Assembly (NCBI RefSeq): GCF_007994225.1
Contig: NZ_VLLL01000007.1
Coordinates: 365,686 to 429,685, forward strand
DNA: 64,000 nucleotides
From: Stackebrandtia albiflava
Lineage (GTDB): Bacteria; Actinomycetota; Actinomycetes; Mycobacteriales; Micromonosporaceae
Reading direction: 5' to 3'
In this document: in pieces, positions 22,503 through 25,514 of the stretch
How positions within the stretch are numbered: the stretch's first letter is position 1
Layout: every line of letters begins with the position of its first letter
Notes under the pieces: generated by a model
Seen by the model: only the letters and a program-made list of their open reading frames with translations
Database searches by the model: none
Told to the model about the DNA's origin: nothing
Program-made: the position numbers and the translations under genes

Positions 22503-23435
22503 TCACTCGAAGGCGAAGGCCACGGCCTCCCACTCGACCCAGCCGCAACCGGTCAGGCCGTCCCAGTCGACCAGGGCCGTCACGTAGCCGTTGTGCAGCT
22601 CCAGGTACTCGGCGGTCGGCGGGTCACCGACCGCGATCTCGACCGTGAACTCGCCCAGGTCCTCCAGCACGCCCTCGACCTCGGCTGCCCCCGGGACCGG
22701 CTGGACGAGGGCGGGCGTGACACCGGTGATGTCGACCAGCTCCAGGCCGGTACGGTCGGCGGCGGGCATGCCACCGGGGCACATCTCGGTCGCGGTGGTG
22801 AAGTCGGCGGTGTACTTGACGACCGGAACACCGTCCTCCACGGCGACCGGGACCGGACGGGACCGGACCGGTTCCGTCCGTTCGTCGTCGCACGTGTTCG
22901 CTTCGAATCGTTCGACCATGACACCGGCCGGAGCGACACGGTTCGACGGGCCGAACTCCCGCTCATCCGAGAATCCGGCGTTCACACAGTTCCACAACCA
23001 TGCCGCGGGCCATTTCACCGTGACGACCTCGCCGTCGTCCCACAACCAGAAGTACACCGCCCGCCAGCTTCGGCTCTCGTCCGCCGGGTCGGTCCACTCC
23101 AGTACCGCGGCGGCGTCCCAGTCGTCGTCTCCGTCGAGGTCGGCGTACGTCGGTTCACCGGTCGCCCGCATGTACGGTCCGTCGATGCCGGACGGGTAGT
23201 ACACGCCGCCGTTCAACCGCGCGGGATCGGTGGGTATTCCCTGGTCGAGCAGGTGGAACTCCGCCTCGTCGAGGCGGAACACCTGGTCGATGCCACTCGG
23301 CGGAGGCTCGGGCTCCGGCCATACCCACCACCCCACGAGGGCGACCAGGGCCATTGCGATCAGGACACGGAACACCACGGTCGAGGGCCGCAGTTCACGC
23401 CGCACGGTCTGCTCGGCGGTGGCTTCAACGGGCAT
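22503..23435 (-). CDS. membrane-anchored hypothetical protein (one N-terminal transmembrane segment); paralog of 26161-27234
   Basis: Shares blocks with the paralog: YADLDGDDDWDAAAVLEW, FWLWDDGEVV and C-terminal GCGWVEWE. Confidence 0.6.
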   Translation of the reverse strand: MPVEATAEQTVRRELRPSTVVFRVLIAMALVALVGWWVWPEPEPPPSGIDQVFRLDEAEFHLLDQGIPTDPARLNGGVYYPSGIDGPYMRATGEPTYADLDGDDDWDAAAVLEWTDPADESRSWRAVYFWLWDDGEVVTVKWPAAWLWNCVNAGFSDEREFGPSNRVAPAGVMVERFEANTCDDERTEPVRSRPVPVAVEDGVPVVKYTADFTTATEMCPGGMPAADRTGLELVDITGVTPALVQPVPGAAEVEGVLEDLGEFTVEIAVGDPPTAEYLELHNGYVTALVDWDGLTGCGWVEWEAVAFAFE

Positions 23436-23447
23436 GCGCGCCCCCGA

Positions 23448-24313
23448 TCATGTGGTCGGGGCGAGGTCGTCGCCCGGTGCGTTCGGATCGACGGCCGCCA
23501 ACTCGGGTTCCGGCGGAACGATCAGGGCGAGTCTCTCCTCGATCTCGAAGACGTTGTCGGCCAGCGTCCGCCGAATCTTCTCCTCCTCATAGGAGATCTC
23601 GATGTCGAGACCGACGAGCGCCTGGTGCATGCTGTCGAGGATCTCGCGCACCCACTGACCCTCCACGGTCACGGCCGCATTGGTTCCCGCCAGAGCCGTG
23701 TCGGCGGTGACTACGCCGATCATCACCGTTCCGAGTTTGCCGCCCACCGACGTCAACGCGCTGGTCACCAATCCGGCCACCTTGACGGTGATCTCCGCCC
23801 CCTCCTTCGCGGACAGCCACAACGGCCACGAGTCGATGCCCTCCAGGGCGGCCTTGGCGGTCTCTCCGATCTGGAACGCCTTGTCGCGCATGCGGTCATA
23901 CAGCTCGGTGTGTACTGTGACCGCCGACCGCAGCGATTCGATCAGGGTGGCGTGGATGTCGCGGTAGTCGTCCCATCTGGCGACGTAGTTCTCGTCGAAC
24001 GCCCGTTTCGCGGTGCCCTGCCAGCCGTCGAGGCCGAGTAGGGAATCCTTGAGCAGCGCGGCGTCCCCGAGGCTGACGGTGGTGATGGCGGATTCGAGGT
24101 GCGTGGCGATGTCGGCGAACCCGCCGAGGTCCGGGGTCGTGAACTTCTCGAACTCCACGAGGATCGAACGGTAGTTCCCTTCGACGTCCTCCTCCGGCCA
24201 CATCATGCTGTCGGTGTCACCGTATTCACGGATGCGTTCCACCTCCCTGGCGTGGCAGGCCGCCATGAACACCTCGCGGGCGATCGCCCTGAGGTCGTCG
24301 TTCGTCGTCACTT
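23448..24313 (-). CDS. hypothetical protein with a WXG-like motif (GWQGTAKRAFDENY)
   Basis: W-x-G followed by A..AF, which resembles the WXG100 loop. The GTG overlaps the upstream stop as GTGA. Confidence 0.55.
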
Positions 24314-24826
24314 GTCCTCCGGCAGTATCTCGGCGACCACGGCGGTGTCCGGGATGTCGGGGTTGACCGGGATGCCGGGGGCATCGGCCAGGTCGTCCCA
24401 GTCCTCGTCGACGAGGTCTTCGGCGACCTCGGCGTCGTGGGTGTCGATCAGATGGTCGAGCTGGTCGACGACGGTCCCGAGCGCCGTGGCGTTGTCGGTG
24501 TCGGCCGCCGCGAACGCCAGGGCGGACTTCTTCAGTACCGTGCCGACGTCGTAGAGGTTCTGCGCGGTACGGCCGAGGATCGCCTGGGTCAGGTCCCGGA
24601 GGTCTCGCCAATCGTCGTAGGCGAGCGACTTCCCGCTCCCTCTCCTGTTACTGAACGTCGTCTCCTCGTCCACCCGCTCGTAGGTGTAGCTCAGGTACTG
24701 GGAGGCCAGCGCGTAGGCGTTGGCCACTGTGGGCAGGTATACGTGTCCGGCTCTCCACAGGTTCATGCAGTCGGTCGCGAATCCGCTGATGTCGGTGCCG
24801 TCGCCGGAGGGTTCCTCATTGACCAT
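24308..24826 (-). CDS. acidic hypothetical protein (172 aa)
   Basis: Open frame with GC-rich third positions and an overlapping stop/start with neighbours. No motif recognised. Confidence 0.5.
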   Translation of the reverse strand: MVNEEPSGDGTDISGFATDCMNLWRAGHVYLPTVANAYALASQYLSYTYERVDEETTFSNRRGSGKSLAYDDWRDLRDLTQAILGRTAQNLYDVGTVLKKSALAFAAADTDNATALGTVVDQLDHLIDTHDAEVAEDLVDEDWDDLADAPGIPVNPDIPDTAVVAEILPEDK

Positions 24827-25514
24827 GTGCGGCTTCCTCCCTCAGTCGTCGCATCTGCGTGTCGATGGCTCGTCGGGTCTCACGGAGCGCCTCGTCCAGG
24901 GCCCGGGCGGCGTCCGAGGTCGTGTCGGACACGATGTCCAGCAGGTCCTGGAGTGAACGGCCGTCGAGGGTTCCCGGTGAGAGCCCGACGATGACGTCGC
25001 CGTCACCGCACAACTCCACGACCACGGAGCCCGACAATCGCTCGGCGCGTCTCTCCAGACGCTCCGACTCCTCTCGGCATCGTCTCTTGTAGTCCCGCCA
25101 CAGCCGGTGGCCGCCGGGGATGTCGTCGAGCTTCGCCGGTTTCTCACCTCGGTACCGGGTGACAACCTCGGCCCGGCGGGCGCGGACTTCGGCGACGAGT
25201 CGCCGGATGAGGTCTTCCAGGGTTTCGGCGAGTTCGTCCTCGCTCCAGTCACCACGCTCGGTGTCGTCGGCCGTCAGGTGTATGCGGCCGGTGGCGTCGC
25301 AACGTGCCGACAGTCTCCGGCAGCGGGAGAACAGCTCCACGGCGATGGTGGCGAGTTCCTGCGGCAAGGGGGATTCCTCCGTGGGCTCGGCTTCCCGTTG
25401 TCGAGTCGCGGTCGTCGAAGGGGCTCGCTCCGGATCGGGCGGTCTCGAAGGCTCCGTGACGCCTCGAATCCGTACGGTGTCATGTATAGCGCCGTAACGC
25501 AACCGGCCGGACAC
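24816..25514 (-). CDS. hypothetical protein (232 aa, charged/coiled-coil-like)
   Basis: First gene of a 4-gene co-directional cluster. No motif recognised. Confidence 0.5.
   Translation of the reverse strand: MSGRLRYGAIHDTVRIRGVTEPSRPPDPERAPSTTATRQREAEPTEESPLPQELATIAVELFSRCRRLSARCDATGRIHLTADDTERGDWSEDELAETLEDLIRRLVAEVRARRAEVVTRYRGEKPAKLDDIPGGHRLWRDYKRRCREESERLERRAERLSGSVVVELCGDGDVIVGLSPGTLDGRSLQDLLDIVSDTTSDAARALDEALRETRRAIDTQMRRLREEAAHGQ

Follow-up and report, generated by a model that had tools for sequence, protein, structure and literature searches.

Gene layout of the locus

The analysed window is a stretch of 64,000 nucleotides (64 kb) from Stackebrandtia albiflava. In it, four genes on the minus strand, here named A to D, form a cassette that was confirmed to be real and tightly coupled, with small corrections to the coordinates. 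Two further genes, E and F, were considered alongside it.

22503-23435, minus strand: gene D, 310 aa, a bitopic membrane protein with a beta-rich, Cys-containing ectodomain
23448-24311, minus strand: gene C, GTG start, 287 aa, a helical bundle with a WXG100-like hairpin, candidate T7SS substrate
24308-24826, minus strand: gene B, 172 aa, a small helical EspC/PE/Lap1-like partner with an acidic, Pro-rich tail
24816-25514 (open reading frame), minus strand: gene A, a YbaB-like protein and candidate dedicated chaperone
26161-27234, minus strand: gene E, a distant paralog of D upstream of the cassette
29067-29384, minus strand: gene F, 105 aa, Asp/Gly-rich, with six DxDGDGxxD-type loops

The tight, partly overlapping minus-strand operon noted in a preliminary description of this DNA was borne out: A and B overlap by 11 bp and B and C by 4 bp (GTGA), C and D are separated by a 12-bp gap, and S. 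nassauensis and metagenome contigs have the genes arranged in the same order. The start of C had been placed at 24313 (288 aa), which is 2 nt out of frame, and was corrected to 24311. C and D were 100% identical to LX16_4212 and LX16_4211, respectively, and the GC3 of B, C and D was 0.87-0.90. For A, a TTG codon at 25367 is the likelier start, being preceded by GGAGG 7 nt upstream and giving a protein of 183 aa, the same length as the orthologs; in the long form, GC3 over the first 30 codons is only 0.63. The cassette is separated from E by a DinB/TIGR03086 gene, and E from F by a gene for a GH35 beta-galactosidase; F probably lies outside the cassette. No promoter or terminator was found in a scan of positions 21800-29800, and no PADLOC defence-system model matched A-F at E <=0.1.

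The WXG hairpin of C

C had been proposed to carry a WXG100-like pattern (W-x-G...A..AF). A lone W-x-G is not significant, because chance gives one in about a third of proteins of this size. C founds a rare, unannotated family of 45 clusters/representatives (248-365 aa), found only by exhaustive HMMER search; word-indexed homolog searches with C, the C-family alignment and D returned almost nothing beyond the queries themselves. Across the alignment of these 45 sequences, where the mean column identity was 21%, W97, G99 and F105 were the sole near-invariant columns besides Met1 (each at least 90% conserved).

23985-24026, minus strand: WXG block of C, residues 96-109, GWQGTAKRAFDENY
24015-24023, minus strand: W97-Q-G99 of C, within GWQGTAKRAFDENY, conserved in the family

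The best and commonest matches of the family were to WXG100 models, all of them sub-threshold. TIGR03930 (WXG100) was matched by 23 of the 45 members (best E 2.8e-6, below the cut-off) and Pfam WXG100 (PF06013) by 17 of 45 (best E 1.8e-4); the curated WXG100 cut-off was reached by no C-family match to either model, C itself scoring 13.7 bits against a cut-off of 27.3 for Pfam and 16.4 against 44.85 for TIGR03930. The top five distinct PDB sequences retrieved with the C-family profile were all WXG100 proteins (E 0.007-0.06), with the printed alignments anchored on the WxG. The EspA/EspE model (PF18879) matched just two of the 45 relatives, with a best E of 0.024, and did not match C.

The AF2 model of C was all-helical (pLDDT 82.5, pTM 0.78), showing the predicted fold class to be helical, and placed the WXG at the turn between helices 63-92 and 100-161. 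This confident model thus has the helix-turn-helix on which the WXG-like reading had been made to depend, and with the family-wide conservation of W97, G99 and F105 that reading now stands on firmer ground than when it was proposed. C differs from the single hairpin of about 100 residues that defines WXG100 proteins, having extra N- and C-terminal helices and a hydrophobic insert.

The partner B and the YbaB-like protein A

A B-like gene was located directly upstream of C in all ten independent loci examined (10/10). B was compared to the Pfam model T7SS_ESX_EspC (PF10824), which it matched over positions 15-99 of 100 with E=0.089 and 13.7 bits against a cut-off of 23.5; this falls short of membership, and only one of six B-family members matched the model. 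Nine of the 13 PDB matches of the B-family profile were T7SS substrates (EsxA, EspB), each with an E of 0.3-2.3. An hhalign comparison of the B and C families found no relationship between them.

24500-24514, minus strand: [F/Y]xxxD motif of B, with Asp109 invariant, at the end of helix 2

Among the nine aligned members of the B family, the first motif position is Tyr in five and Phe in four and the Asp is invariant; the B-like protein of locus L013 also has such a motif (FAEQD). A YxxxD/E signal is described for T7SSa and FxxxD for Lap1, the motif being carried by the non-WXG partner and required for T7SS export (PMC9600955). The same bipartite pattern is found here at the sequence level, with the WXG on C and [F/Y]xxxD on the adjacent B at the end of helix 2. 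The two motifs also fell in register in profile alignments to M. tuberculosis EspC, EsxA and EsxB, which serve as illustration only (scores of 3-10 bits). B thus resembles an EspC/Lap1-like partner whose [F/Y]xxxD, similar to the "export arm" of T7SS substrates, is a putative export signal.

A matched Pfam YbaB_DNA_bd (PF02575) at residues 147-213 with E=0.031 (14.9 bits against a cut-off of 25.5), and the model was matched by three of five A-family members, with a best E of 2.8e-6. The top PDB matches of the A-family profile were likewise YbaB/EbfC proteins (1pug, E 1.8e-4; 1ybx, 7.9e-4; Rv3716c 5yrx, 0.043). These profile matches point to a YbaB affinity of A, as is found in mycobacterial EspD, EspH and EspL; the latter three YbaB-like proteins have been proposed as dedicated chaperones of EspE/F and EspA/C (PMC6107294). 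No match of A, B or C reached a curated family threshold. Even so, the initial view of the cassette as four unknown proteins no longer holds for these three, which now have specific assignments.

The hydrophobic stretch of C

Most relatives of C contain an uncharged, Gly/Ala-rich run of about 42 residues (median of the longest uncharged run, 42 aa), which suggests membrane insertion.

23664-23795, minus strand: C residues 173-216, Gly/Ala/Val/Thr-rich stretch, candidate membrane-inserting hairpin, weakened in this species

The best 19-residue hydropathy window was at least 1.6 in 40 of the 45 family members. It is weakest in this very protein: the best window of the S. albiflava C reaches 1.37, Lys and Asp interrupt the stretch, and the model has a pLDDT <50 at residues 181-199. 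In the relatives the stretch gave weak matches to HblD, NheB, MakA, SseD and class IIb bacteriocin models.

Genes D, E and F and the Asp-rich loop

D matched no Pfam or NCBIfam family and had no informative homolog, and its AF2 model was unusable (pLDDT 39) and too poor for a fold search. The proposal that a membrane paralog of D is encoded at 26161-27234 held up. D and E were 43% identical over 56 aa (BLASTP, E=6e-9) and shared in addition a C-terminal CGWV block, and invariant columns are common along the whole length of the D family aligned with E; judged by sequence, the two are distant paralogs.

23319-23378, minus strand: transmembrane segment of D, residues 20-39
23115-23147, minus strand: YADLDGDDDWD of D, residues 97-107, a DxDxD(G)xxD loop of the FG-GAP/VCBS type
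26680-26712, minus strand: YADLDGDMDLD of E, which has its transmembrane segment at residues 79-102

The block in these loops had been described as (V/T)YADLDGD, a possible calcium-binding element common to D, E and F. Its conservation was confirmed: A98, D99, D101, D103 and D107 do not vary among D, three orthologs and E, so that Asp occupies loop positions 1, 3, 5 and 9 of DxDxDGxxD in all of them, and two of the D orthologs have Gly at the canonical position 6 (DLDGDGDTD, DVDHDGHDD). Sub-threshold FG-GAP_3 matches at the loop were obtained for two of five D-family members (best E 0.041); D and E have a single loop each rather than the tandem repeats of a beta-propeller, and no match was above the cut-off. 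By its sequence pattern, the block is a widespread FG-GAP/VCBS-type DxDxDGxxD loop, and calcium binding is suggested by the motif.

Translated in all six frames, the 64 kb contains just three copies of YADLDGD, each in the reading frame of its gene: D at 23147, E at 26712 and F at 29246. The DNA identity of the motif is what preferred high-GC codons give, and we infer that it is not evidence of gene conversion. F contains six loops, beginning at residues 9, 29, 49, 62, 75 and 88, and its YADLDGD belongs to a degenerate one (DLDGDHTYR) that lacks the ninth-position Asp. F gave sub-threshold matches to FG-GAP, TSP_3 and DUF6802 and, outside the loop, showed no convincing homology to D or E. The calcium element claimed for three genes is thus supported only in part: in D and E the common block reflects paralogy, and in F it is just one of six generic loops.

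Distribution and T7SS machinery

The order A-B-C-D recurs in S. nassauensis, with 33, 47, 41 and 35% identity for A, B, C and the protein at the position of D, respectively, and in loci L004 and L005. A-B-C recurs in L006, L010, L011 and L013. B-C was found in L009 and L012, where the contig ends, and in L007 the A-like gene comes after B-C; all contigs that extend far enough have an A-like gene. Conservation and synteny span species and GC contents from 48 to 70%. D-like genes lie downstream of C also in L004/L005, and a further one is P0047, but D is not adjacent to most C relatives, being absent in L006, L010, L011 and L012. A GC trough is seen in S. nassauensis, and the cassette for this reason looks horizontally mobile. 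No F-like or E-like gene was found near it in that species.

Scans of genome contigs with the C- and D-family alignments returned no relatives and missed S. nassauensis as well, a metagenome scan returned one short C locus (L013) and no D relative, and a tblastn search of plasmids with C and E found nothing. Two D-family patterns, one being AD[LV]D[GH]Dx[DH]xD, matched 600 metagenome stretches, none from a D relative. Two candidate syntenic genes were rejected as unrelated: a 105-aa gene beside the C relative in L012, considered as an F ortholog, encodes a Cys-rich secreted protein, and a flotillin-like gene near the cassette does not correspond to the flotillin gene of L010.

In agreement with the preliminary description, Pfam scans of 27 ORFs, including every ORF >1000 aa, detected no ESX core genes in the window. 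Likewise, none of the family members examined had a T7SS core gene within 10 kb. Four ESX-4 clusters are reported for S. nassauensis (PMC4791881, Table 1).

A candidate substrate module for a type VII secretion system

The cassette most likely encodes, in the order A-B-C-D, a chaperone, a small export-signal partner, a WXG-type membrane-active T7SS protein and a membrane-anchored protein with a calcium-loop motif. We consider it probable that A-B-C is a stand-alone substrate module for a T7SS encoded elsewhere in the genome, like EspD-EspC-EspA and EspH-EspF-EspE. C would fold as a bundle of helices and pair, through its WXG hairpin, with a helical hairpin in B, and the WXG of C together with the [F/Y]xxxD arm of B would constitute a bipartite signal read by the EccC ATPase, while A, with its putative YbaB fold, would act in the cytoplasm by binding and stabilising the B-C pair. 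Once exported, C would enter a membrane with its Gly/Ala-rich stretch and may act there as a pore, a translocator or a depolarising protein. D would be an add-on found only with the closest C relatives, a membrane-anchored ectodomain with a calcium-type loop, and with low confidence we regard it as a cognate surface partner of C, in immunity or anchoring. More tentatively, the C family may represent undescribed T7SS-exported proteins, in which a WXG hairpin is built into a larger bundle with a membrane-inserting Gly/Ala hairpin and which are encoded by a mobile three-gene cassette with its own YbaB-type chaperone and [F/Y]xxxD partner.

A variant of this explanation, which we think unlikely, makes C a T7SS-delivered, membrane-depolarising antibacterial toxin like TspA and D and E its immunity proteins, the duplication being an immunity array. 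The uncharged Gly/Ala-rich stretch throughout the C family, with its weak pore-former and bacteriocin matches, fits such a toxin, and the apparent mobility of the cassette points the same way. A membrane-protein gene directly downstream of C, with a paralog upstream of the cassette, also recalls the TspA/TsaI precedent with its several tsaI copies (PMC7456083). However, D is missing beside most C relatives, so that most family members would be without such immunity, and it is just in the subfamily linked to D that the hydrophobic stretch is degraded; D and E are, moreover, single-pass proteins with large ectodomains, unlike the membrane-embedded TsaI.

Somewhat less likely still is that the module is not secreted. 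A would then be an ordinary nucleoid-associated DNA-binding protein of the YbaB/EbfC type, B and C would be helical proteins of the cytoplasm or associated with a membrane (e.g. in membrane remodelling or stress), and the likeness to WXG proteins would be convergent.

It is improbable that D, E and F are functionally linked by (V/T)YADLDGD acting as a specific calcium-binding element. The exact 7-mer is confined to these genes within the 64 kb, its Asp residues do not vary in E or the D orthologs, and the pattern fits DxDxDGxxD calcium loops. Against this, D and E share the block by descent, F is a series of six such loops in which the matching one is without the ninth-position Asp and shows no similarity beyond the loop, and none of the 600 metagenome stretches that matched D-family patterns came from a D relative. 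The GH35 and DinB genes also separate F, E and the cassette, and neither an F- nor an E-like gene accompanies the cassette in S. nassauensis. Finally, long spurious ORFs abound in high-GC DNA and a single W-x-G carries no significance, but the GC3 values, protein conservation and synteny across species of 48 to 70% GC and the family-wide retention of the WXG already refute the notion that the ORFs and the tripeptide arose by chance in high-GC DNA.

To our knowledge, little has been established about actinobacterial T7SS substrates other than those of mycobacteria or about what the ancestral ESX-4-type systems do, and the chaperone-partner-substrate logic has so far been known only from accessory substrates of mycobacterial ESX-1. 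If the substrate-module reading is true, the cassette would be a defined substrate module for an ancestral ESX-4-type system, might be related to the EspACD and EspEFH virulence modules by descent or by analogy, and would be the source of a candidate membrane-active effector family missed by current Pfam and NCBIfam models. If the C family is indeed an undescribed exported one, the same logic would operate in non-mycolate actinomycetes with ESX-4-type machines, exporting a pore-forming or depolarising effector, with the calcium-loop membrane protein as its cognate partner in Stackebrandtia. The apparent horizontal mobility of the cassette would be in keeping with a competition factor. Should the substrate-module reading be wrong, the locus comprises four conserved hypothetical genes of narrow distribution.

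Comparison with known systems

Of the membrane-active proteins that C recalls, the ClyA/Hbl/Nhe/MakA toxins and T3SS translocators share with it a long helical bundle with an internal hydrophobic segment. Weak matches of the C family to HblD, NheB, MakA, XaxA, SseD and Hbl L1 map to the hydrophobic segment (E 3e-4 to 0.05); these matches were confined to its low-complexity part, fold searches of C gave no specific match and ClyA-type membership was not supported, so the likeness is treated as analogy, not homology. In S. aureus, TspA is neutralised by the adjacent membrane-bound TsaI, of which strains carry several copies (PMC7456083). Both TspA/TsaI and the cassette combine a T7SS-type helical domain at the N-terminus with a region that is membrane-active, or in C predicted to be so, and in both a neighbouring membrane-protein gene exists in more than one copy. 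In contrast to that pair, with which no sequence relationship was detected, the stretch of C is internal and not C-terminal, and D and E are single-pass ectodomain proteins. The loop of D, its orthologs and E has Asp at the same positions (1, 3, 5 and 9) as FG-GAP/VCBS (integrin alpha-type) proteins, whereas D and E have one loop each and not a seven-bladed propeller, Pfam thresholds were not reached and the calcium loop is putative.

C resembles the WXG100 proteins EsxA and EsxB in having its W-x-G where a helical hairpin turns, with a conserved aromatic residue after it. It has roughly three times their length, additional helices and a hydrophobic insert, and scores below the cut-offs, and B is not a detectable paralog of C. 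In the LXG-Lap1-Lap2 system (T7SSb, Bacillota), the FxxxD of a small helical partner acts with the turn motif of the larger substrate (PMC9600955), and four of the nine aligned B-family members have Phe like Lap1 rather than Tyr. That system belongs to another phylum and T7SS subtype, and the cassette has neither an LXG domain nor a second Lap-type partner but a YbaB-like protein instead.

The espACD and EspE-EspF-EspH modules of ESX-1 share with A-B-C a make-up of three genes, for a larger substrate of WXG type (300-400 aa), a small helical partner with a YxxxD-type motif and a YbaB-like protein as the proposed chaperone (PMC6107294). The cassette differs from the Esp modules in that membership is not detectable by sequence (EspA_EspE, 2/45, E >=0.024; EspC, E=0.089), the gene order is reversed with the chaperone first, C has a central hydrophobic Gly/Ala stretch and a fourth gene, D, is attached. 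It belongs to a non-mycolate actinomycete, the sister species of which is listed with ESX-4-type clusters only. The espACD genes are encoded away from the secretion-machinery genes, and A-B-C likewise sits apart from such genes. The cassette is thus an unannotated variant of a known module type and not a new kind of system.

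Gene layout of the cassette

The cassette of Stackebrandtia albiflava (Glycomycetales) consists of four genes, here named A to D in order of transcription:

24816–25514, minus strand: open reading frame of gene A, YbaB-like protein
24308–24826, minus strand: gene B, candidate small partner protein of 172 aa
23448–24311, minus strand: gene C, GTG start, WXG100-like protein of 287 aa
22503–23435, minus strand: gene D, membrane-anchored ectodomain protein of 310 aa

The tight packing of the genes noted in the preliminary description was confirmed, with a correction to the boundary of C, which lies at 24311, as position 24313 falls outside the reading frame by two bases. 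The overlap is 11 bp for A and B and 4 bp (GTGA) for B and C, a gap of 12 bp separates C from D, and GGAGG-type ribosome-binding sites precede B and C. The GC3 of B, C and D is 0.87–0.90. The C protein is 100% identical to LX16_4212, annotated as a hypothetical protein, and D is 100% identical to LX16_4211.

The long form of A is probably over-extended and translation more likely begins at TTG 25367, since a GGAGG is found 7 nt upstream and the resulting 183 aa agree with the length of the orthologs (157–188 aa for complete A-like proteins of other loci). Over its first 30 codons the long form has a GC3 of just 0.63, and the 49 codons upstream of the TTG (25367–25514) combine low GC3 with the lack of a counterpart in orthologs. 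With the TTG start, A would begin approximately 160 bp from the DinB/TIGR03086 gene that precedes it, a spacing that fits a separate four-gene transcription unit; a simple promoter and terminator scan returned nothing for or against such a unit.

Conservation of an A-B-C core

None of the four proteins matched Pfam, NCBIfam or PADLOC models above threshold, and the cassette proteins carry hypothetical annotation in databases. Word-indexed searches retrieved C alone, and the C family was instead obtained by an exhaustive HMMER search with C, which gave 45 cluster representatives of 248–365 aa. The nearest relative, WP_013015881.1 from S. nassauensis (41% identity), is encoded in a locus with the same four genes in unchanged order (33%, 47% and 35% identity for A, B and D, respectively), and a pair of metagenome contigs (L004/L005) again shows the A-B-C-D order. 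In all seven more distant loci (L006, L007 and L009–L013) a B-like gene lies immediately upstream of C, and an A-like gene is found in every locus whose contig extends far enough, positioned upstream in L006, L010, L011 and L013 and downstream in L007. As B- and A-like genes recur with C, while D accompanies just the three nearest relatives of C, with P0047 as a single additional database protein, A-B-C is the conserved core and D a lineage-specific addition. In L007, beyond the genes in B-C-A-like order, the contig ends within the first part of a gene for a protein with an N-terminal membrane anchor (L007:3818–3898), which may be a D counterpart in a distant relative. Pattern scans of genome contigs for the C and D families missed even S. 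nassauensis, despite exact matches there, and absence from those scans is uninformative.

The cassette looks horizontally mobile. The genes flanking it differ between S. albiflava and S. nassauensis; in the latter it coincides with a sharp GC trough (L001:7001–10000, 49–50% vs 62–73% in the flanks), and in S. albiflava the GC content is slightly low (23500–25500, 64–67% vs approximately 70%). A contig of 48% GC (L013) carries a C relative at 36% identity.

C is a WXG100-like protein with a hydrophobic stretch

The proposal that C is WXG100-like is supported by conserved residues, sub-threshold top matches and a helical model. Mean column identity in the 45-sequence alignment is 21%, and besides Met1 only W97, G99 and F105 are conserved in at least 90% of the sequences. 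C alone matched TIGR03930 (E=0.0075) and Pfam WXG100 (E=0.075); across the family these models matched 23 (best E=2.8e-6) and 17 (best E=1.8e-4) of the 45 members, respectively, none reaching the curated cut-off, and WXG100 was by far the commonest match. When the family profile was compared to all PDB sequences, the top matches were the WXG100 proteins 4lws, Staphylococcus aureus EsxA, EsxB and SAG1039 (E 0.007–0.06), and the WxG is the anchor of the three alignments printed (4lws, EsxA). The AF2 model of C is confident and all-helical (pLDDT 82.5, pTM 0.78), placing the WXG between helices 63–92 and 100–161, with further long helices at residues 4–30 and 221–259. Membership of the EspA/EspE family was undetectable, the Pfam EspA_EspE model matching just two of the 45 members, weakly. 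After the last helix the family has a conserved proline-rich tail (VPPxPxLA...; 23496–23519), which could be a docking peptide.

Most family members also contain a stretch that lacks charged residues and has abundant Gly, Ala, Val and Thr (median 42 aa), beginning approximately 45–95 residues, typically 70, past the WXG, and the best 19-residue Kyte-Doolittle window reaches at least 1.6 in 40 of the 45. The stretch is strong in relatives such as P0012 and P0041, and in the S. albiflava and S. nassauensis proteins it is broken by charged residues (hydropathy maxima 1.37 and 1.46). It forms the sole low-confidence segment of the C model (residues 181–199), positioned between the two longest helices with short strands on either side. 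The stretch of the relatives weakly matches models of hemolysin BL L1, NheB, MakA, the SseD translocon and class IIb bacteriocins; we read these matches as suggesting a shared membrane-insertion character, not homology.

A and B resemble partners of type VII substrates

A alone matched Pfam YbaB_DNA_bd at E=0.031, three of five A relatives matched this model (best E=2.8e-6), and the top PDB matches of two A-family profiles were YbaB/EbfC proteins (1pug at 1.8e-4 for one; 1ybx at 7.9e-4 and Mycobacterium tuberculosis Rv3716c at 0.043 for the other). The mycobacterial YbaB-like proteins EspH, EspD and probably EspL have been proposed to be dedicated chaperones that stabilise EspE/EspF and EspA/EspC (PMC6107294).

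The B family contains an [F/Y]xxxD motif (residues 105–109 of B, 24500–24514) with an invariant Asp at the end of helix 2; its first position is Tyr in five and Phe in four of nine family members, and the L013 protein has FAEQD. The motif resembles the YxxxD/E signal of T7SSa and the FxxxD of Lap1 (PMC9600955), and behind it lies an acidic, proline-rich tail. B alone gave a sub-threshold match to the EspC model (E=0.089, model positions 15–99 of 100), and nine of the 13 PDB matches of the B profile at E<=10 were EsxA or EspB, each individually insignificant (E 0.3–2.3). Comparison of the B family with the C family by hhalign revealed no relationship. Export of LXG toxins requires the Lap1 motif, which works in concert with the partner's turn motif (PMC9600955).

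The YADLDGD motif in genes D, E and F

Translation of the window in all six frames yields three exact copies of YADLDGD, solely in D, in its distant paralog E (26161–27234) and in F, an Asp/Gly-rich protein of 105 aa (29067–29384). A GH35 beta-galactosidase gene lies between F and E and a DinB-type gene between E and A. D and E are alike in layout, each having a membrane anchor at the N-terminus and a Cys-containing ectodomain after it. They align at 43% identity over 56 aa (E=6e-9) and have a C-terminal CGWV block in common. The Asp positions of the block are conserved in orthologs: A98, D99, D101, D103, D107, W130, L131, W132, D134 and C150 are invariant in D, three orthologs and E. Two D orthologs carry DLDGDGDTD and DVDHDGHDD, which are canonical DxDxDGxxD, and sub-threshold FG-GAP_3 matches coincide exactly with this loop. 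Loss of the block from orthologs, which would have contradicted the preliminary description, was thus not observed. In D and E it plausibly represents a single calcium loop of FG-GAP/VCBS type. For D, the AF2 model is unusable for the fold (pLDDT 39).

F consists almost wholly of six DxDGDGxxD-type loops spaced by 13–20 residues, and its domain matches (FG-GAP, TSP_3, DUF6802) are all sub-threshold. It resembles D and E within the loop only, where its YADLDGD is the degenerate one of the six (DLDGDHTYR). The suggestion of a calcium-binding element common to all three genes is partly supported: D and E share the conserved block as paralogs, and F has it only as one of its six generic loops. Preferred codon usage would account for the near-identity of the DNA across the motif. 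No E- or F-like gene was found near the S. nassauensis cassette, and a metagenome scan with two D-family patterns, one being AD[LV]D[GH]Dx[DH]xD, matched 600 stretches, none encoding a D relative.

Other genes of the window

A 1478-aa hybrid histidine kinase with eight HAMP repeats, GAF, HisKA/HATPase and a receiver domain is found at 9954–16471, divergently oriented to a SpoIIE-type phosphatase with an anti-sigma-kinase-like domain. A plus-strand cluster (30141–38082) encodes proteins of 255 and 691 aa without Pfam matches, the latter with a hydrophobic N-terminus and unrelated to the flotillin encoded near the L010 cassette, followed by a 1656-aa DUF3686/DUF7902/AAA ATPase. Two consecutive open reading frames of 1505 aa (51094–55611) and 1562 aa (55479–60167), with GC3 of 0.89–0.90 and no Pfam match, are flanked by genes for DUF4132 (50118–51125) and DUF5682 (60697–63999, running past the window end).

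A proposed orphan substrate module

ESX core genes were absent from the 27 open reading frames scanned in the window, including every one above 1000 aa, in agreement with the preliminary description, and none were found within 10 kb of the other C-family members examined. S. nassauensis DSM 44728 has four ESX-4-type clusters according to a survey of ESX systems (PMC4791881, Table 1). The most strongly supported reading is that A-B-C is an orphan module providing substrates to a type VII secretion system. B and C would form a helical complex in which the WXG and the [F/Y]xxxD motif provide a bipartite export signal, A would act as chaperone of the pair, and C, once exported, would engage a membrane through its hydrophobic stretch. 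D, and possibly E, might be a cell-surface partner of C, for immunity or anchoring; our confidence in this role is low because D is absent from most loci and has a single-pass topology.

Literature searches yielded no account of a YbaB-WXG module other than in mycobacteria. The components of the locus and their logic belong to an already known type of system. The module would function similarly to EspD-EspC-EspA, and for C together with D the nearest functional analogy is TspA/TsaI (PMC7456083).
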